The notes below the pieces were generated by a model. That model searched no databases. It was given only the letters and a program-made list of their open reading frames with translations, and was not told where the DNA came from. A stretch of 10,844 nt of DNA from a virus (lineage: Duplodnaviria > Heunggongvirae > Uroviricota > Caudoviricetes). Below, one piece after another: positions 1,173-10,844 of this stretch (within the stretch, counting starts at the first letter, position 1; the number at the start of each line of letters is the position of its first letter). The stretch is from the IMG/VR virus record IMGVR_UViG_2537561687_000016, positions 1 through 10,844 of that record. One strand, given 5' to 3'. A program made the translations under genes and the position numbers.

Positions 1173-3920
1173 ATGAATGTTGACATTAAACATTTTGAAC
1201 ACATTATTAAAGCTGCAGATGACAACTCACTAGCAATTTTTGTCGGAGCTGGGGTATCTAAATCAGCGGAGAATGATACAACCAAATTACCTACATGGTC
1301 AGATTTGATCGAAGAGTTAAAAATAGATCTTGGTATAACCTATGAATTAGATTACCTGAAAGTGGCACAATTATATTTTTTAGAATTTGGTCCTCATACT
1401 TACTATAAGAAAATCAAAAAGTATTTCCCTGACAATCTTGTTCCATCTAAAATACATGAATTAATTTTTGGGATAAATCCGCATTATGTAATTACTACAA
1501 ATTGGGATTGTCTGCTTGAGACTTCGATGTTAGAAAATGCATATATTTATGACTTGGTTTGCAGTGATCAGGATCTAATGAAATCAAGCCTTGATAAAAA
1601 ACTTATTAAAATGCATGGTGATTTCAAGAATCATAATATAGTTTTCAAAGAAGATGATTACATCAATTATGAATTTAATTTTCCATTGTTGTCGAATTAT
1701 ATAAAGAGCATATTATCAACTCACACAATAATTTTTATTGGCTATTCTTATAGTGATATTGATATTAAGCAAATAATAAAATGGGCTCAAAATCATACAT
1801 CGATACGCCCTCCAATGTATTTGTTGGTGTATGAAAATGACGTTGTGCAAAGTCGGTACTTAGCAAGTCATGGTGTGCAGACTCTCATGGCAGGAGATTA
1901 CAATGGTGGTGGGTATTCTGATTATCGAACTAACAAATTATATGGTTTTCTGAAGTCAGTAAAAGATAAAAAAGTTAGTAGTAGTGTTGATAAAAGTGTA
2001 ATTAATATTGTTTTTGCAAAGTTAGCAGAGCTTGGAACATTAAATGCAATATTAGCCGATCAGATTACTAGTTGTTTAGGTGAATGTTATATAGTTTATC
2101 GTGAGGTTGAAAATCGTCAGGTTGCATTATTAAAGTTCTATAGGAATGAAGCAACTCAGTTACAAAATGCAGAGCTCAGAGAAATTTATGCTAAATTTAA
2201 AAGAATTATAAAGACTAGCGATGATACAGGAGAGCATAGAAACTTACTTGGACCAATATTTGATATATTACAAAAAGCAGATATTGCTGGTGTAATCTGC
2301 GACGATGAAGACAAAGAAGCTGTTTTGACTCGTGATATGGCAACAACTCCTGTGAGAAAAAAAGCAGTTGAGGTTTTTAGGTTTGATTATAATAATAAAT
2401 TTGATTTTAGTAAAAAAAATAAATCAATTATGAATTTAAGCTTCGATAAAACAGATCCTTATCTATTTTATCAGCAATGTGATTTTGAAATGGCTTATCA
2501 TGCGGTTGATATTATAATTAAGCATGAGTTGAAGCATAAAAACTATGCCTCATTACTTATATCCCTTTTAAACCATAATATGATTTTACATGTTTTAAAA
2601 AATAGTTTTTTTCACAGGCGAGATAATTTCAGCGATTCAGAATCTTATGATATTAATGAGAGGTTTGACAACTTTCCAAAAAACGTGAAGAGATCACTAT
2701 CTACTTTGTTAGATATTGTTAATGTTGATTATATGTTCAAGTTTATACATTCTGTAGATAAGATACTAACAAAAAATAAAGATAGAGAAGATAAGAAGAC
2801 TTTTTTTTACTTGGATGCTGAAGAGTATAAAACTGATTTTGTTCATAAAAATATACTTTACTTCATAAAAGAAAATGGTTGTCTTGTTGATAACTATTCT
2901 GAGTTTAAATATGCTATTAATAAGATATTTGAGATAAAGGCTACAAAGCAAAAATCACAGGTAAATAATGATTCGATATTGTTTTCATTAGAGGAATTAT
3001 ACTCTGCAATTAAGTATTTAGAAAGTAATAGCCTTAAGGAAAAATTCAAATATAAAAAGAGAAATAAATATCTGAAGTTAGAATTAGATAGTGAAAGTGC
3101 AGAATGGTTGTTGAATCATGCTTTCAAGGAGTTGAGTCAGTTTTATAGAGAGAAAAAAGGAGTAGGTAATTATCATTTGGAGTCATTTAAAAATGCACTT
3201 TATCTTTTAGCCTTTTCTGATGAAAGCCATAATGATAAGGAATTGATTTATAGAGAGTTAATTGGCTTGGTTAGTGGTGATTACAATCAACTCGATTTTA
3301 TTGATTGCATTACTGAATATGTGACAATCTGTTTTAATAATAAAGGGAAGATAGATTTAGAGTTTATAAGAGGTTTGATGAATGGTTTGATTGAAAATTA
3401 TTCGTCATCAACAATTAAACAGAGACGCTACTTCAATAATATATTGAACTCTGCACGTAATATTTTCATCATTGCTAATGAGTTAGGTTTATCATTTGAT
3501 AATCATGTCTTATTGAAGCAATTATTATCGTCGGTAAATGATTGCGAATCTATCGAAAAAATTAGAACTGTAGAAACCATTATTTACGAACTTTTTATTG
3601 TTGGGGATGAACTGACTAAGAAAATGATAAAGGAGTTTATTAGTTTACTTGATATAGAACAATTTGGACACGATAAAAAAATCAAGTTTAAACTTTTTTT
3701 ATTGGCTGCTAGCATAATTGAAAAAGATGATCGTATAGCTAATGATACTCTTACTATGATTAAAAATTTATCCAAGAATAAATTTAGTTCGGAATTGTAC
3801 TCAATGAGAAATACACTCGAATTTTTAGTTAATAATAAAAAGATGCAGGAATTTTCTGAATCTTATGACGAAATAAAAAAAGTGATCTCACTTTTAGAAA
3901 ATAAATATCTAAGTCATTAA
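1173..3920 (+). CDS. SIR2-like (SIR2_2-type) domain protein, 915 aa, with large C-terminal domain of unknown function; candidate single-gene anti-phage defence protein (DSR-like)
   Basis: Complete ORF, ATG 1173 to TAA 3918-3920. N-terminal approx 230 aa show SIR2-like hallmarks: Rossmann FVGAGVSKS (res 23-31), TWSDL, ITTNWD with Asn110 (nt 1500-1502), KMHGD with His148 (nt 1614-1616), FIGYSYSDID (res 188-197). No Walker A or other catalytic motif seen in the remaining ~650 aa. Strongly AT-rich versus the flanking backbone. Confidence 0.75.
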   Translation: MNVDIKHFEHIIKAADDNSLAIFVGAGVSKSAENDTTKLPTWSDLIEELKIDLGITYELDYLKVAQLYFLEFGPHTYYKKIKKYFPDNLVPSKIHELIFGINPHYVITTNWDCLLETSMLENAYIYDLVCSDQDLMKSSLDKKLIKMHGDFKNHNIVFKEDDYINYEFNFPLLSNYIKSILSTHTIIFIGYSYSDIDIKQIIKWAQNHTSIRPPMYLLVYENDVVQSRYLASHGVQTLMAGDYNGGGYSDYRTNKLYGFLKSVKDKKVSSSVDKSVINIVFAKLAELGTLNAILADQITSCLGECYIVYREVENRQVALLKFYRNEATQLQNAELREIYAKFKRIIKTSDDTGEHRNLLGPIFDILQKADIAGVICDDEDKEAVLTRDMATTPVRKKAVEVFRFDYNNKFDFSKKNKSIMNLSFDKTDPYLFYQQCDFEMAYHAVDIIIKHELKHKNYASLLISLLNHNMILHVLKNSFFHRRDNFSDSESYDINERFDNFPKNVKRSLSTLLDIVNVDYMFKFIHSVDKILTKNKDREDKKTFFYLDAEEYKTDFVHKNILYFIKENGCLVDNYSEFKYAINKIFEIKATKQKSQVNNDSILFSLEELYSAIKYLESNSLKEKFKYKKRNKYLKLELDSESAEWLLNHAFKELSQFYREKKGVGNYHLESFKNALYLLAFSDESHNDKELIYRELIGLVSGDYNQLDFIDCITEYVTICFNNKGKIDLEFIRGLMNGLIENYSSSTIKQRRYFNNILNSARNIFIIANELGLSFDNHVLLKQLLSSVNDCESIEKIRTVETIIYELFIVGDELTKKMIKEFISLLDIEQFGHDKKIKFKLFLLAASIIEKDDRIANDTLTMIKNLSKNKFSSELYSMRNTLEFLVNNKKMQEFSESYDEIKKVISLLENKYLSH

Positions 3921-3984
3921 AGTAACTTTTATGATTTTTTATTATCGATAATTGCAGCAATTATAAGATGAGCGTTAGTGCGCA

Positions 3985-4003
3985 GTGCTTTCCCCGCCTC
4001 GCC
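3985..4003. other. cos site core (P2/P4-type 19-nt cohesive end sequence)
   Basis: GTGCTTTCCCCGCCTCGCC at 3985-4003 is the exact reverse complement of GGCGAGGCGGGGAAAGCAC, which I recall as the 19-nt cohesive end of P2/P4. Immediately followed by a GC-rich stem (4003-4008 pairing with 4017-4022) and TTTT. Confidence 0.7.
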
Positions 4004-4104
4004 CGCCCGCTTTGCGGGGCGGTTTTAATGCAGTTGCACTGACACGCTCAGGCCGTGCCGGGCGTGGCCTGGTATACAGAAAATGAGGCAGGAAAACGCA
4101 TGCA

Positions 4105-4137
4105 AAGCCATGCACCTTATCGATGCATGGCTTTTTT
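4105..4137 (+). terminator. Rho-independent terminator-like hairpin (plus-strand orientation)
   Basis: AAGCCATGCA (4105-4114) pairs with TGCATGGCTT (4124-4133), 9-nt loop, followed by a T-run (4132-4137). Lies between cos and the 3' end of psu, positioned to stop read-through from the int/cargo side. Confidence 0.5.
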
Positions 4138-4167
4138 CAGTAAAAACGGGCGGATTTTCGGGGAATT

Positions 4168-4740
4168 TTACACAGACTGACGTGATGCCAGTTGCGCACT
4201 TTTACGCGAAAAAATCATGTTCTGCGCAGGAGTGAATTTTTCACGGCTGTCATCCACCGAAGCCGCGTCAGGCCTGAATCCGATGGTCGTTAAAATGTCG
4301 CTATCCTGTGCGGAATAATTAATTTTTTCACCCTTCGCAAGCCAGGACAGAAGGGCTTCACGCAGGGCATCTGTGGCACGCTGTATGGCACAGTTTCGGG
4401 CAATGGCCGTCAGCTCACTGTAGCCCATCAGCTCCGGTGCCAGTGCCGCCGCCAGTGCTGTGCCGTGCTGCTGCATAAAATCATTCAGCCGGTCGCGGAT
4501 GCTGATGTGCTGAACGGCTTCATGCGAACGAATATAACGACCGGCGGCCTGATTCACCTGCCATTTTCTGACTTCGATAATATTGCGTAATTCGTCCAGG
4601 CGACTGACGTTTCTGCCTTCTCCTGACAGAAGCCGCAGATATTCCTGTTCGGCCGCTGCCAGCTCATTTTTGCGTTGCAGCCATGCTGCTTTGTTATTCT
4701 GACAGGTGTCAAAGGCCTGCTGTAAGGCTGTGCTTTCCAT
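4168..4740 (-). CDS. psu: Psu-like polarity suppression / capsid decoration protein, 190 aa
   Basis: 190-aa ORF, same length as P4 Psu; N-terminus MESTALQQAFDTCQNNKAAWLQRKNELAAAEQEY matches my recollection of P4 Psu. Last gene of the minus-strand sid-delta-psu operon. Confidence 0.85.
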   Translation of the reverse strand: MESTALQQAFDTCQNNKAAWLQRKNELAAAEQEYLRLLSGEGRNVSRLDELRNIIEVRKWQVNQAAGRYIRSHEAVQHISIRDRLNDFMQQHGTALAAALAPELMGYSELTAIARNCAIQRATDALREALLSWLAKGEKINYSAQDSDILTTIGFRPDAASVDDSREKFTPAQNMIFSRKSAQLASRQSV

Positions 4741-4813
4741 CGTTATCTCTTTCTCATCATGCTGAAGAATAAAAATACGGTGTGCGGCGACGGCCGGTGT
4801 TAACCGGCAGCCC

Positions 4814-5314
4814 TCATTCCAGACGCAGCGAATATGATTGTGTTTTTAACCGTACTGGCGGCAGTTCCTGTTTTTCATGCAGGCGTTCTGCCAGTTCGTC
4901 CGGCGTGACCGGGCGGACAATGAAGCGGTTGATGGTCTGAAGCGTTTTAAACACCAGACCACAGCCCGGATCCGTGCACACATAAAAACGCTCGGTGACT
5001 TCCTGAGACAGACGCCGCGATGTTCTTGACAGTGCAAGGCCTTTACATCTCCGACAACAATATCCGGTAACAAGCATTCTTTTCGGGCGTTTCATACTGC
5101 CGGAGGCTGACGTCAGTGAATCGCGGTATCTCTGTTTGCCTGAAATGTATTCCATTCCTGAATCTTTACTGTCAGAGAAAAAGCTTTCACTCGCTTCAAA
5201 TGTCGCAGAGCAATAAATATTCCGGCACTGTGCAATCATTATCTTGGTGCCATCGTCCATGAAATGTGCGCGACGGGTGTGAGCAACATGTCCACACGAC
5301 GGGCAGTAAATCAT
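4814..5314 (-). CDS. delta: Delta-like late transcriptional activator (tandem Ogr-type zinc fingers), 166 aa
   Basis: 166 aa, same length as P4 Delta. Two Cys-rich Ogr-like modules (MIYCPSCGH...C...C and CRRC...CTDPGCG). Start codon overlaps the sid stop (ATGA at 5311-5314). Confidence 0.85.
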   Translation of the reverse strand: MIYCPSCGHVAHTRRAHFMDDGTKIMIAQCRNIYCSATFEASESFFSDSKDSGMEYISGKQRYRDSLTSASGSMKRPKRMLVTGYCCRRCKGLALSRTSRRLSQEVTERFYVCTDPGCGLVFKTLQTINRFIVRPVTPDELAERLHEKQELPPVRLKTQSYSLRLE

Positions 5315-6044
5315 GACAGCAGTCCTCTGGCCTTAAGCTCTGCTCCCTGCTGGTCTATTTTGTCCTGCCACACCTTGCGCTGTGCCGGTGTGCCTGCCAC
5401 CTCATAATCCATGTGCGGGAGTGTTGCCGCTGACAGTCCGGTCAGCCGGAGAACCGGCTCGCCGGTGAGGCTGATTTGCATCTGTTTAATTTTCTGTTCC
5501 AGCGATGATTTCACCTGCTGCATGACAGCCTTTTCCGGTGCGACGTAGCCCTGATGGCCGGTGGTGTTGGCGAGCGGATTTTCCTGTACCAGAATGCTCA
5601 GATGCATTGCCCGGACAAGCGCCTCACAGGTTTCATTCAGGGCGTGTTCCAGCTCATGCTCTGCATACAGACTCAGAAGGTGATGATGTGCCTTCCGGTA
5701 GGCGGTGGCCGTGCTGTCACACGCCCCTTTCAGGCGTTCCGTTCAAAATTCAGCACCACGGCCAGATTGTCATATTCCTGTACCAGCTCCCGGCGTGCCA
5801 CGCGCTCAATGTGGCGCTGTTTCAGCTCGTCGCTCAGGACACCACCGGCTGCACGAAAGGCCGTGCGCCAGTCGTCAGCGTCGTTTCCGTCGGCCTGCGC
5901 CAGCGCATTTTTTTCCTGCTCTGCCCGTTCAATGGCCGTGACGGTCTCATCCATCAGGCGGGCGTTCTCAAGATGGGCGGCTCTGGCCTTTTCCAGTTGT
6001 GCCAGTGCGGGTTGCAGATATTCAGGGATGGTGTTGTCAGACAT
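5311..6044 (-). pseudogene. sid: sid-like capsid size determination gene with an apparent 1-nt frameshift (two ORF fragments)
   Basis: N-terminal fragment (ATG at 6044-6042 with AGGAG RBS, to TGA at 5732-5730) begins MSDNTIPEYLQPALAQLEKARAAH. C-terminal fragment continues in another frame to TGA at 5313-5311. Total span 734 nt, one short of the 735 nt needed for a 244-aa Sid plus stop. Frame switch lies around 5725-5740. Confidence 0.6.
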
Positions 6045-6116
6045 TTTCCGGCTCCTCGTCACTTCAGGTTAAGAAAATTGTGACGTACACCGGACAACAA
6101 CACGACGCATTGCAGA

Positions 6117-6134
6117 TGTGCCAGCCCTGACACA
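6117..6134 (-). promoter_or_regulatory. TGT-N12-ACA dyad, candidate Delta/Ogr activator site of the leftward late promoter (P_sid-like)
   Basis: TGTGCCAGCCCTGACACA at 6117-6134. Centre is about 80 bp upstream of the sid ATG (6044), compatible with the roughly -55 position of Ogr/Delta sites at P2/P4 late promoters. Confidence 0.5.
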
Positions 6135-6213
6135 GGAGACTCATCCTCAGACCGGCAAGCCAGGAAAAGGTCGCAGGAAAAACCGGCTTACTGTTTGTTT
6201 TTTTATATTTTAC

Positions 6214-6317
6214 TGTTCACCTCTGTTCACCATAAGAAAAAAGATAAGTAATACAGTAAGTTAAAGGGTGAACAATCGCAGTAATGACTGTTCACCGTCT
6301 GTTCACCACTGTTCACC
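6214..6317. repeat. Iteron array: five direct copies and one inverted copy of TGTTCACC, candidate alpha-binding replication origin (P4 ori-like)
   Basis: Direct copies at 6214-6221, 6224-6231, 6289-6296, 6300-6307, 6310-6317 (spacing 10-11 bp); inverted copy GGTGAACA at 6267-6274. TGTTCACC is, as I recall, the type I iteron bound by P4 alpha at ori and crr. Array lies about 4.7 kb upstream of the projected alpha 3' end. Confidence 0.6.
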
Positions 6318-6420
6318 CGCTGATGGACTTTTTGTGCTGTTTACTACTGTTTGTTTTTATTAATTCGCCGTGAATGAATAAGAAGAAACGATTTGTATTT
6401 CACTATAAAAATTACGAATT

Positions 6421-6450
6421 GCTTTAAGTGGCTTTAAATGACTTTAAGTG
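6421..6450. repeat. Three tandem 10-bp repeats (GCTTTAAGTG / GCTTTAAATG / ACTTTAAGTG), candidate regulator binding sites
   Basis: Perfectly contiguous decamers with 1-2 mismatches, about 27 bp upstream of the rightward TGT-N12-ACA dyad. Function unknown. Confidence 0.4.
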
Positions 6451-6476
6451 GAGATGAACAAAAAACACACAGCCAT

Positions 6477-6494
6477 TGTAAGGCTGCCGGAACA
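6477..6494 (+). promoter_or_regulatory. TGT-N12-ACA dyad, candidate Delta/Ogr activator site of the rightward late promoter (P_LL-like) upstream of vis
   Basis: TGTAAGGCTGCCGGAACA at 6477-6494; centre about 110 bp upstream of the vis ATG (6597). Confidence 0.45.
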
Positions 6495-6596
6495 AATCCC
6501 CCCTGTTGCGTCTGCCAAAAATATTCACAAAATAAAGCGCTACCCGAAGCCGGACGGACTTATCCGGTGCTGTATGGACATTAACGAGGTAGCCCG

Positions 6597-6863
6597 ATGC
6601 AAGCTGTTTTTTCTTCCCCGTCTCCCGCCCCTGTGACGCCACTGATGCCGCTGCCGGACATCACGCAGGAGCGTTTTTTACGTCTGCCGGAAGTGATGCA
6701 CCTGTGCGGCCTGTCACGCTCGACCATCTACGAACTCATCCGTAAGGGGGAATTTCCGCCGCAGGTGAGTCTTGGCGGTAAAAATGTGGCCTGGCTGCAC
6801 TCTGAAGTCACCGCATGGATGGCCGGACGCATTGCCGGACGCAAACGGGGGTACGACGCATGA
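6597..6863 (+). CDS. vis: Vis-like (AlpA-family) small HTH DNA-binding regulator/excisionase, 88 aa
   Basis: 88 aa, same length as P4 orf88 (Vis). HTH-like core [27 protein letters not shown] typical of AlpA/Vis regulators. GAGG RBS at 6586-6589. Confidence 0.8.
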
Positions 6864-6898
6864 TGATGCCCGCTCTGCAAAAACTCCCTTTTTCTGGC

Positions 6899-6928
6899 TT
6901 GCCTTTTTCCGGCATTTGCGGATATAGT
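6899..6928 (+). promoter_or_regulatory. Candidate sigma70 promoter (P_LE-like) for the immunity/early operon
   Basis: TTGCCT (6899-6904), 18-nt spacer, TATAGT (6923-6928). A perfect 7-bp hairpin follows at 6935-6954 (GCTGCCG / CGGCAGC). Pattern match only. Confidence 0.35.
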
Positions 6929-7249
6929 TTTTCCGCTGCCGCAAAATCGGCAGCCGGGCGTGAGAACCCGAGTAAGTCAAAGGCGACATATGACGCGCCA
7001 TGCGTCTTTTTTTGTGTCGCAATCAACGCCACAGAGCGCCAGATTATGGTGTGGCGTGTGGTTTGCCGTGCAGGTATGATCCTGTTCGCAATCGCATGTT
7101 ATGCCACTGAGTCAATGGTAGCTCAGGCGGGGCAGCCTCCGGGCTGGCCGGTATCCTATGACGCCGGTATTCTCACCCCCGTCTGGGCTATCGCCATCGA
7201 GCGTGAGAACTCCGGCGATAGCGTTATTTGCTACTCAGGAGGCTGCCTT

Positions 7250-7447
7250 ATGGCTACAACCCTTACCCCCTCACACCCTGAATTTGTCTTTGTGTTTGCG
7301 GCTGTCCGTCGCGCAGACCGTCATCCCCGTATCTGCATGCTTCGCACCGTCGCCGGTGATGAACGCAGCGCCCGCCGTTCCCTTGTCCGTGACTATGTGC
7401 TCTCCCTTGCTGCCCGTCTGCCGGTGGTGGAGGTGTCCCGTGCGTAA
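7250..7447 (+). CDS. Small hypothetical protein of the P4-like early operon, 65 aa
   Basis: ATG at 7250 preceded by AGGAGG (7236-7241). This is the 3' 65 codons of the 210-aa track ORF, whose upstream part overlaps vis, the promoter and structured leader and is unlikely to be coding. Identity not recognised. Confidence 0.45.
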
Positions 7448-7727
7448 TAAAAAAGCCCCTCAGACCGTCTCAGCACGTCATGACGCCCGTGAACACCTCA
7501 GCATTGAGGCTTACCATAAGCTCAACCGCGCCAGCGCCGTATCCCAGTTTGTTGGGGGTGATTTGATTCACCGTGAACTCTCCGGCCTGCATCAGCTCTA
7601 CATTCCGCATATTTTCAGCTACCTGAATGAAGATATTGATTTTGTGCTGAATGAGCTGAAAGCCAAAGGCCTGTGCCGCGATTTTCTCGCCCAGCAGAAA
7701 GACCGGGGAGACAGGACGCATGTTTGA
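7440..7727 (+). CDS. Small protein, 95 aa, possible epsilon-like helper derepression protein (tentative)
   Basis: GTG at 7440 preceded by GGAGGTG. Overlaps the previous stop by 8 nt and ends in ATGtttTGA overlap with the next gene. 95 aa fits my uncertain recollection of P4 epsilon. An in-frame ATG at 7395 without RBS is an alternative start. Confidence 0.4.
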
Positions 7728-8175
7728 TTTTCCCCAGCCCGGTGAGATTTACCGTTCTGCCGGTTTTCCCGATGTGGCCGTGGTCGGCATTCTGGAAGAC
7801 GGTATTCCGTGGGAAATGCCGTACCGCTGCCCGGACATTGTCTGGAACCCGTACCGCCGTAAATTCAGTATCCTTGTGCGTATCCTCGCTGACGGGCGCA
7901 CCACAGACATCCCGCTGGGGCGTTTTCTGCGGGAATTTACCTGTGACCGTCCTGACCTGTTTAAACGCAGCCCCGTAAACCGGCATGCGGTACTGAAAGA
8001 AATGGCCGGAGACCCGGAATTACAGAAATGGCGGGAGAAATATCTGGATATTTACCCGCAGGACACTGTTCCGGTCAGCCGGGCAGCACCGGTGGCGCGG
8101 GAATGGCGGGAAATTCCCCGCACGGAGCCTGACCCGGAAACCACCCCGGATAACAGTTACCGCAATTATCTGTAA
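7720..8175 (+). CDS. P4 orf151-like hypothetical protein, 151 aa
   Basis: 151-aa ORF immediately upstream of the alpha region, with GGGGAG RBS. Length and position match P4 orf151. Function unknown. Confidence 0.7.
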   Translation: MFDFPQPGEIYRSAGFPDVAVVGILEDGIPWEMPYRCPDIVWNPYRRKFSILVRILADGRTTDIPLGRFLREFTCDRPDLFKRSPVNRHAVLKEMAGDPELQKWREKYLDIYPQDTVPVSRAAPVAREWREIPRTEPDPETTPDNSYRNYL

Positions 8176-8310
8176 TTAAAAAACGACACCCGAAAAATTA
8201 AATGTGCGTATTCGCGCAGGGATACGCACGTCTTCAGGAGACGCAGATATGCCTTATCAGTTAATGCAACCGGCACGGAATGCAGTCATCTGTCACAGGG
8301 AGGAAAGCAA

Positions 8311-8631
8311 ATGAAAACACCCTTACCGCCCGTCTTACGCGCTGCCCTTTACCGTCGCGCTGTCGCCTGTGCCTGGCTGACCGTGTGCGAACGTCAGCAC
8401 CGCTACCCGCATCTCACCCTTGAATCACTGGAGGCGGCCATCGCCGCTGAGCTGGAAGGCTTTTATCTGCGCCAGCACGGTGAGGAAAAAGGGCGTCAGA
8501 TAGCCTGTGCCCTGCTGGAAGATTTAATGGAATCCGGCCCCCTGAAGGCCGCGCCGTCGCTGTCCTTTCTCGGGCTGGTTGTGATGGATGAACTCTGTGC
8601 CCGTCACATAAAAGCGCCGGTACTGCACTGA
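8311..8631 (+). CDS. P4 orf106-like hypothetical protein, 106 aa
   Basis: 106-aa ORF with GGAGG RBS (8298-8302), ending 14 nt before the alpha start. Length matches the P4 orf106 name; position assignment is from memory and uncertain. Confidence 0.6.
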
Positions 8632-8645
8632 AGGAGAACAACACC

Positions 8646-10844
8646 ATGAAAATGAACGTAACCGCCACCGTCAGCCATGCGCTCGGCCACTGGCCGCGTA
8701 TTCTCCCGGCGCTGGGGATTCAGGTGCTGAAAAACCGTCATCAGCCCTGTCCGGTCTGTGGCGGGAGTGACCGCTTCCGTTTTGATGACAGGGAGGGGCG
8801 CGGCACCTGGTACTGCAATCAGTGTGGTGCCGGTGACGGCCTGAAACTGGTTGAAAAGGTGTTTGGTGTTTCCCCGTCCGACGCGGCCGCAAAGGTGGCT
8901 GCCGTGACCGGCAGCCTGCCCCCGGCTGACCCGGCAGTGACGGCTGCCGCCGGTGCTGAAACAGACGCTGCCCGGAAGAACGCCGCCGCACTGGCACAAA
9001 CCCTGATGGCAAAAACCCGTCCCGGAACCGGTAACGCCTACCTGACCCGCAAGGGCTTTCCCGGCCGGGAATGCCGGATGCTGACCGGCACACACAGAGC
9101 CGGTGGCGTGAGCTGGCGCGCCGGTGACCTTGTGGTGCCACTGTATGACGACAGCGGCGAACTGGTTAACCTTCAGTTAATCAGTGCTGACGGCCGTAAG
9201 CGCACCCTGAAAGGCGGACAGGTCAGGGGCACCTGTCACACCCTTGAAGGACAGAATCAGGCCGGAAAACGTCTGTGGATAGCGGAGGGATACGCGACCG
9301 CACTTACCGTACATCACCTGACCGGTGAAACGGTGATGGTGGCGCTTTCTTCCGTGAACCTCCTTTCTCTGGCCAGCCTTGCCCGGCAGAAGCATCCGGC
9401 CTGTCAGATTGTCCTTGCCGCAGACCGTGACCTCAGCGGTGACGGCCAGAAAAAAGCCGCCGCAGCCGCAGATGCGTGTGAGGGCGTTGTTGCCCTGCCG
9501 CCGGTCTTCGGTGACTGGAATGATGCCTTCACGCAGTACGGCGGGGAGGCCACCCGTAAGGCCATTTACGATGCCATCCGGCCACCGGCTGAAAGCCCGT
9601 TCGACACCATGAGCGAAGCAGAGTTTTCCGCCATGAGTACCAGCGAAAAGGCCATGCGTATCTATGAGCATTACGGCGAGGCGCTCGCGGTCGATGCCAA
9701 CGGCCAGCTTCTGTCCCGTTATGAAAATGGTGTCTGGAAGGTGCTGCCGCCACAGGACTTTGCCCGGGATGTGGCCGGGCTGTTTCAGCGTCTGCGCGCG
9801 CCGTTCTCCTCCGGGAAGGTGGCCTCCGTGGTGGACACCCTGAAGCTGATTATTCCGCAGCAGGAAGCCCCCTCCCGCCGCCTGATTGGCTTTCGTAACG
9901 GCGTGCTCGACACGCAGAACGGCACGTTCCACCCGCACAGTCCGTCACACTGGATGCGCACCCTGTGCGATGTGGATTTCACCCCGCCGGTGGACGGTGA
10001 AACGCTGGAAACCCACGCCCCCGCGTTCTGGCGCTGGCTTGACCGTGCCGCCGGTGGCCGTGCGGAAAAACGCGACGTGATTCTGGCCGCACTGTTTATG
10101 GTGCTGGCAAACCGCTACGACTGGCAGCTCTTTCTGGAGGTGACCGGTCCCGGCGGCAGCGGCAAAAGTATCATGGCCGAAATAGCCACCCTGCTGGCCG
10201 GGGAGGATAACGCCACGTCGGCCACCATTGAGACGCTGGAATCCCCGCGTGAACGTGCCGCGTTAACTGGCTTCTCACTGATACGCCTGCCGGACCAGGA
10301 AAAATGGAGCGGCGACGGTGCCGGACTCAAGGCCATCACCGGCGGCGATGCGGTGTCCGTGGACCCGAAATACCGGGATGCGTACTCCACGCATATCCCG
10401 GCGGTGATTCTGGCCGTGAACAATAACCCGATGCGCTTCACCGACCGCAGCGGCGGCGTGTCACGCCGGCGGGTGATTATTCACTTCCCGGAACAGATAG
10501 CCCCGCAGGAGCGCGACCCGCAGCTTAAGGACAAAATCACCCGCGAGCTGGCGGTCATCGTGCGTCACCTGATGCAGAAGTTCAGCGACCCGATGCTCGC
10601 CCGGTCACTGCTTCAGTCCCAGCAGAACTCAGACGAGGCGCTGAACATCAAACGGGATGCCGACCCGACGTTTGATTTTATCGGCTATCTGGAAACCCTG
10701 CCGCAGACCAGCGGCATGTATATGGGGAACGCCAGTATCATCCCGCGTAATTACCGTAAATACCTCTATCACGCCTATCTGGCTTACATGGAGGCAAACG
10801 GCTACCGGAATGTACTCAGTCTGAAAATGTTCGGGCTGGGGCTG
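8646..10844 (+). CDS. alpha: Alpha-like primase-helicase (zinc-binding N-terminus, Toprim primase, D5/SF3-type helicase), 3'-partial (733 codons in window)
   Basis: ATG 8646 with AAGGAG RBS. I translated the frame by hand over the N-terminal ~280 codons and the last ~250 codons and found no stop; the middle section was not checked codon by codon. This ORF is absent from the supplied track, presumably because it has no stop within the window. Motifs: CPVCGGSDRFRFDDREGRGTWYCNQCG, Toprim-like WIAEGYATALTV and VLAADRDLSGDG, Walker A GPGGSGKS (approx 10146-10169). P4 alpha is 777 aa as I recall, so about 44 codons are missing. Confidence 0.9.
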   Translation, partial: MKMNVTATVSHALGHWPRILPALGIQVLKNRHQPCPVCGGSDRFRFDDREGRGTWYCNQCGAGDGLKLVEKVFGVSPSDAAAKVAAVTGSLPPADPAVTAAAGAETDAARKNAAALAQTLMAKTRPGTGNAYLTRKGFPGRECRMLTGTHRAGGVSWRAGDLVVPLYDDSGELVNLQLISADGRKRTLKGGQVRGTCHTLEGQNQAGKRLWIAEGYATALTVHHLTGETVMVALSSVNLLSLASLARQKHPACQIVLAADRDLSGDGQKKAAAAADACEGVVALPPVFGDWNDAFTQYGGEATRKAIYDAIRPPAESPFDTMSEAEFSAMSTSEKAMRIYEHYGEALAVDANGQLLSRYENGVWKVLPPQDFARDVAGLFQRLRAPFSSGKVASVVDTLKLIIPQQEAPSRRLIGFRNGVLDTQNGTFHPHSPSHWMRTLCDVDFTPPVDGETLETHAPAFWRWLDRAAGGRAEKRDVILAALFMVLANRYDWQLFLEVTGPGGSGKSIMAEIATLLAGEDNATSATIETLESPRERAALTGFSLIRLPDQEKWSGDGAGLKAITGGDAVSVDPKYRDAYSTHIPAVILAVNNNPMRFTDRSGGVSRRRVIIHFPEQIAPQERDPQLKDKITRELAVIVRHLMQKFSDPMLARSLLQSQQNSDEALNIKRDADPTFDFIGYLETLPQTSGMYMGNASIIPRNYRKYLYHAYLAYMEANGYRNVLSLKMFGLGL

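Follow-up and report, generated by a model that had tools for sequence, protein, structure and literature searches.

Is the broken sid reading frame of a P4-like satellite prophage a mutation carried by its bacterium, or does it belong only to the deposited sequence? The stretch of DNA analyzed here (the window) comprises the 10,844 nt at the end of contig AQBY01000075.1 (GCA_000358655.2) from the ETEC isolate Escherichia coli p0305293.3; it begins at the start of the integrase gene, and the contig ends within alpha. The core set of a P4-like satellite was found in it, namely, int, psu, delta, sid, alpA/orf88, epsilon, and the alpha primase gene together with cos, with alpha being cut at the contig end at 10844.

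On the plus strand, the integrase gene (1-1170; 389 aa) is followed by a SIR2-domain cargo gene (1173-3920; 915 aa). The P4 core (3980..10844) begins with cos (near 3980-4050) and continues with psu (4168..4740, minus strand; 190 aa) and delta (4814..5314, minus strand; 166 aa, with an Ogr/Delta zinc finger), both of which are intact. It is completed by sid, the ori region, orf88/alpA (6597-6863), an ash-like gene (6860-7447), epsilon (7440-7727), orf151 (7720-8175), orf106 (8311-8631), and alpha, which starts at 8646 and is open to the last base, 10844. From 4004 onward, the identity to phage P4 (X51522) is 98.4%. The delta allele was present in 16215 blocks of the gene collection and supplied ten clean reference cores. 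The window end is also the contig end and lies 135 nt before the alpha stop codon; it is a repeat-induced contig break and not the end of a truncated gene.

Two observations concern the unique side of the element. The cargo protein has an N-terminal SIR2_2 domain resembling ThsA, and the exact protein was found in 263 blocks of the collection. A system-level match was absent when the cargo gene was submitted to PADLOC, and the gene probably serves anti-phage defense within the P4 hotspot. In the integrase gene, a private substitution was found at approximately position 918 (plus strand; A, compared with C in six relatives), and the 389-aa protein was unique to this contig. This substitution could be a private SNP or an error.

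Reading frames of sid and the position of the missing base

On the minus strand, sid occupies positions 6044-5311 and has a length of 734 nt, compared with 735 nt in P4 and in every relative examined. Translation from the ATG at 6044 passes through 101 native codons and then through Arg-Asn-Ala to the stop codon TGA at 5732-5730, giving a 104-aa product (5730..6044; GenBank ENG66626.1). The remainder of the gene is intact in the original frame (5311..5739, minus strand), with codons 103-244 followed by the stop codon at 5313-5311, which shares an ATGA overlap with the delta start (5314-5311). Residues 103-244 showed zero changes, and their sequence is the same as in a common Sid allele. The initial annotation had described a frame that stops at 5732-5730 and resumes in another frame up to the delta overlap, with a total length 1 nt short of an intact 244-codon gene, and both descriptions were borne out. 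Its placement of the indel in a short G/C run near 5724-5735 did not hold. When the alignment with intact sid genes that it had proposed was carried out, the gap was placed between 5739 and 5740, and the CCCC/GGGG run at 5724..5727, which lies 12 nt downstream of the indel on the sense strand, was the same as in all references.

As located by alignment, the missing base (5739..5740, minus strand) corresponds to sid nt 306 and would occupy the third position of the Arg102 codon. Its sense-strand context is GAACG[Y]GAACGCC, and on the plus strand GCGTTC is directly followed by CGTTC. Among 17 clean references, this column was polymorphic, with A in P4-type copies and G in SIR2-type relatives (plus strand). 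The corresponding Arg102 codons are CGT and CGC, respectively, and either allele encodes Arg. The junction k-mer spanning the deletion is TTTTGAACGGAACGCCTGAAAG, and the two intact versions at the site are GAACGCGAACG and GAACGTGAACG. Apart from this single 1-nt gap, whose position is precise, the deposited sid is 99.3% identical to P4 sid, and the gap is not a chance product of ORF listing.

The first ATG of the original frame is at 5607 (Met147), and the 98-aa ORF starting there (5311..5607, minus strand) is annotated as a separate gene. Inspection of the sequence near this ATG revealed no Shine-Dalgarno sequence, and on this reading the ORF is probably not a real gene. The ribosome-binding site of sid itself is at 6053..6055 (minus strand), as carried over from the X02534 annotation via the alignment. 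A scan for promoters and terminators around sid gave none.

The interrupted form of sid is rare. The deletion was absent from 1168 sid copies in 975 complete E. coli genomes, and the best matches all had one extra base. Exact matching of the 33-nt junction sequence gave no hit in either IMG/VR or the GTDB representative genomes, which is evidence of rarity only. In a collection of 153 billion gene positions, the 104-aa product was found on one contig only. Restoration of one base gave a 244-aa Sid that was present exactly on at least 1000 contigs and had the same sequence as the intact Sid in the sibling assemblies described below. Because a one-base repair yields this common protein, no further sign of decay is seen in sid. 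The repaired protein matched chain E of 7JW1 over residues 1-244 (E = 7e-157); a Sid model was absent from Pfam.

Disruptions of sid were also observed in other assemblies. Four unrelated assemblies (L011 to L014; locus position 9908) had a common right-hand deletion endpoint corresponding to 5700 and 5701 of the window (sid nt 345 and 346), and their left-hand endpoints differed (window 7329, 7849, 8324, and 8400). Every one of these junctions bears a TAnnGG-like motif, which suggests a recurrent, site-preferring deletion of the 5' half of sid, ori, and part of the left operon. Single-nucleotide deletions in sid were seen at the equivalents of window positions 5714 and 5723. The former was in an otherwise intact element (Logan SRR16277969), where the fragment was present on two Logan contigs, and the latter was in E. 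coli 2770900, whose fragment has entries from NCBI as well as Logan. Certain sid frameshifts elsewhere may therefore be genuine.

Satellite copies in the same clone and the deletions of their shared core

In 2011, several colonies were taken from a Bangladeshi patient whose ETEC diarrhea was cholera-like; isolate p0305293.3 is among them and was sequenced at GSCID/IGS. Isolates from the same patient were clonal in 10 of 12 subjects, and both exceptions were other patients. The source project used an Illumina HiSeq 2000 instrument with 100-bp paired reads, 300-bp inserts, and a coverage of >200x, and the reads were assembled with Celera Assembler; according to the project authors, SPAdes was run as well. 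The sibling assemblies were found via a spurious 48-aa ORF in the ori region.

Three P4-like satellites with different cargo were found in the same-patient assemblies, and they share a core of approximately 6.9 kb with approximately 99% identity. Copy A, the window element, is located at thrW, adjoining proA, and carries the gene for the 915-aa SIR2 protein. Copy B is located at leuX, flanked by ahr and yjgR, and carries cII and a Beta_protein gene (L017, L041, and L043). Copy C adjoins yicJ and carries the gene for a 906-aa SIR2 protein along with a 387-aa integrase (L042; AQBV01000146.1, 1633-5529). A contig connecting the copy A cargo (SIR2-915) to sid was not recovered among the sibling assemblies, and look-ups with the window integrase and ash proteins returned the source contig and no siblings.

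The core closest to that of the window was in isolate p0305293.8 (L017; AQCD01000081.1), with 99.53% identity compared with 98.9% for the next best. In this contig (1-20297), the leuX-side flank, int422, cII, and the Beta_protein gene are followed by a P4 core, beyond which comes the paoD/LysR flank of the thrW-site element; this last flank had 0 mismatches to L004 over 1364 nt. The join is either chimeric or a real inversion between copies. Eight private 1-nt deletions in its core split alpha, orf106, ash, and sid. The mixed join in p0305293.8 and the contig break within alpha in the window indicate that the assembler was unable to keep the copies apart.

A change of allele type was seen near the left end of the core of the window. 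Alleles typical of SIR2-type relatives (L024) persisted for approximately 350 nt into the shared core (3984-4265), and from 4330 onward the window carried sibling/P4-type alleles at 84 sites. This change may reflect recombination or, alternatively, a consensus in which the other copies predominate.

Suspicious 1-nt deletions in the window were confined to the P4 core (3980..10844), which is repeated in the same strain and within which the contig ends. Over the 10.7 kb comprising the unique flank, int, and the SIR2 gene, 0 indels were found relative to six relatives, and the 5.5-kb unique side of copy B had 0 gaps among three siblings. In the shared core, the private 1-nt deletions numbered 2 in the window, 8 in p0305293.8, and 3 in L043, and private insertions were absent from all of these assemblies. 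The two in the window are the 5739 site and a patch at 7222..7236 (plus strand) within the ash-like gene. The patch has a net change of -3 nt, keeps the frame, and falls on variable columns; the resulting 195-aa protein was unique to the window contig. Like the sid deletion, the patch is probably a consensus artifact.

The deletions coincided with the sites at which the copies differ. Variable columns made up 6.6% of the core among the 17 clean references, and 9 of the 10 private deletions of the window and p0305293.8 fell on them (binomial, 2e-10). The sid deletion of the window is one of these nine; within sid, the chance probability of such a coincidence is 7%. The window and p0305293.8 together had 1 private substitution and 10 private deletions, compared with 146 and 5, respectively, in the clean references (Fisher, 1e-11). 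One substitution against 10 deletions is not what natural mutation produces.

Assemblies of the same clone also disagreed with one another. The copy B sid had an intact 244 codons in L041 and L043 and two deletions in p0305293.8. A deletion at 5745 was linked to the copy B cargo in p0305293.8 and to the copy C cargo in L042. At site 5739, the base was present in all four siblings.

Explanations of the missing base

From the comparison of these sequences, the base missing from sid was very probably lost in the consensus of the draft assembly and not by mutation in the bacterium. This reading accommodates the deletion pattern, its restriction to the repeat, its coincidence with variable sites, and the disagreement between clonal assemblies. 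Reads of the near-identical satellite copies would have been merged in the core, and a base would sometimes have been lost where the copies differ. The two alleles may have been put in separate, half-gapped alignment columns and both voted out, and the site between 5739 and 5740 would be one such place at which the base was dropped from the consensus. We infer that the real copy A carries an intact 244-codon sid. The window has far fewer odd deletions than p0305293.8 (2 versus 8), which counts against a consensus artifact, and a literature search found no paper on such a consensus failure of Celera Assembler. The database record does contain the frameshift, but the organism most probably does not.

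The main alternative is a genuine, recent -1 frameshift at Arg102 in copy A, either in the clone or in the isolate, which would leave the satellite Sid-null; we consider it unlikely. The deletion is present in the deposited sequence, and the contig ties it to the unique cargo of copy A. Since no other sibling contig was found to cover the copy A sid, a real deletion confined to that copy would show only in the window contig. Such a loss would also be tolerable, as sid-null P4 is viable and three of its genomes can be packaged in P2-size heads (PMC6893505), and other sid disruptions, both 1-nt and larger, exist in unrelated public assemblies, some of which are reproduced in Logan. However, the truncated product occurs on one contig only, no further change has accumulated in sid, and the deletion sits on a variable column. 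The same assembly has the second private indel patch, again on variable columns, and the sibling assemblies prove that the assembly generates such deletions.

If the deletion were real, its effect could be read from the structure of Sid, in which residues 11-137 form a coiled-coil stem, residues 139-189 form the dimer knot, and residues 161, 163-165, and 219-224 contact gpN (PMC7552001). The 104-aa stub would lack part of helix alpha2, the dimerization knot (139-189), and the gpN-binding helix alpha6 and would be null, with delta and psu staying intact. Packaging of the satellite would then be inefficient and restricted to multimers in large, helper-size heads, with an increased release of helper phage (PMC6893505). 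The claim in the initial annotation that the satellite is unable to remodel helper capsids to the small form while keeping psu and delta is thus sound as a conditional statement (PMC7552001, PMC6893505), but not as a likely description of the real genome. On this unlikely reading, the ability to redirect capsid size would have been lost only recently by a SIR2-carrying P4-like satellite of an epidemic ETEC clone, whose delta, psu, cos, int, and alpha would all have been retained. Alongside the other sid disruptions and the common endpoint at sid nt 345 and 346 in unrelated assemblies, this would be one case of recurrent sid loss in satellites drifting toward fixed defense islands, and the allele would be an ordinary loss-of-function allele whose phenotype has been known since the original sid mutants.

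A base-calling or homopolymer error in the short G/C run at 5724-5735, the other cause put forward in the initial annotation, is highly improbable. A GGGG run does lie near the indel on the sense strand, but it is unchanged in all references, and the gap was found outside it, at 5739 and 5740, between two differing contexts. In addition, Illumina sequencing at >200x does not give indels in a 4-mer, and the deletions of this project follow the inter-copy SNP sites and not homopolymers. Of that proposal, the notion of an error stands, since the evidence favors an assembly artifact, but its location in the run and its origin in a homopolymer miscount do not.

A functional split, with two real genes or with full-length Sid made by programmed -1 ribosomal frameshifting or transcriptional slippage, can be given hardly any weight: two ORFs exist and the gap is preceded, at a distance of 7 nt, by a TTTT run, but this run is also in the intact alleles, the zero frame (AAT TTT GAA CGG AAC GCC TGA) contains no X_XXY_YYZ heptamer, Met147 is not preceded by a Shine-Dalgarno sequence, and the arrangement is not conserved, being found in 0 of the 1168 complete-genome copies and absent from the siblings. 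Related satellites with the same split, which the initial annotation had named as a sign of two real genes, were not encountered, as no other copy has it.

Under the favored explanation, a consensus artifact, the case calls for caution. When a gene of a satellite, prophage, or other multi-copy element is called a pseudogene from an older short-read draft, the call can be an artifact of the assembler, and here this applies to the GSCID ETEC genomes made with Celera Assembler. The element in the window would be misclassified in satellite surveys that grade elements as complete or degraded according to whether their core genes are intact.

Comparison with known systems

The closest known counterpart is Sid of phage P4 (X51522, CAA35904.1; PDB 7JW1), an external scaffold that determines capsid size by directing gpN of the helper into T=4 capsids. 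The window has the same sid-delta-psu operon and ATGA overlap as P4, and its sid shows 99.3% nucleotide identity over the gene. In P4, Sid is encoded by an uninterrupted 244-codon ORF, whereas the window record, which is without nt 306, gives separate 104-aa and 98-aa gene calls. The failure of the window to show the 244-codon ORF is probably an artifact of the record. Laboratory P4 sid mutants, such as the one by which the gene was defined, would share their phenotype, i.e., no T=4 redirection (PMC6893505), with the window element if its frameshift were real. However, these mutants carry verified mutations, and the deletion in the window is probably not present in the cell.

A further likeness is to the frameshift artifacts of draft assemblies in multi-copy elements, with which the window and its siblings have in common repeat-confined indels on inter-copy sites that are inconsistent within the clone and are accompanied by contig breaks and a chimeric join. 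Their pattern differs from that of general collapsed-repeat artifacts in that it consists of deletions only, which lie exactly on SNP columns.
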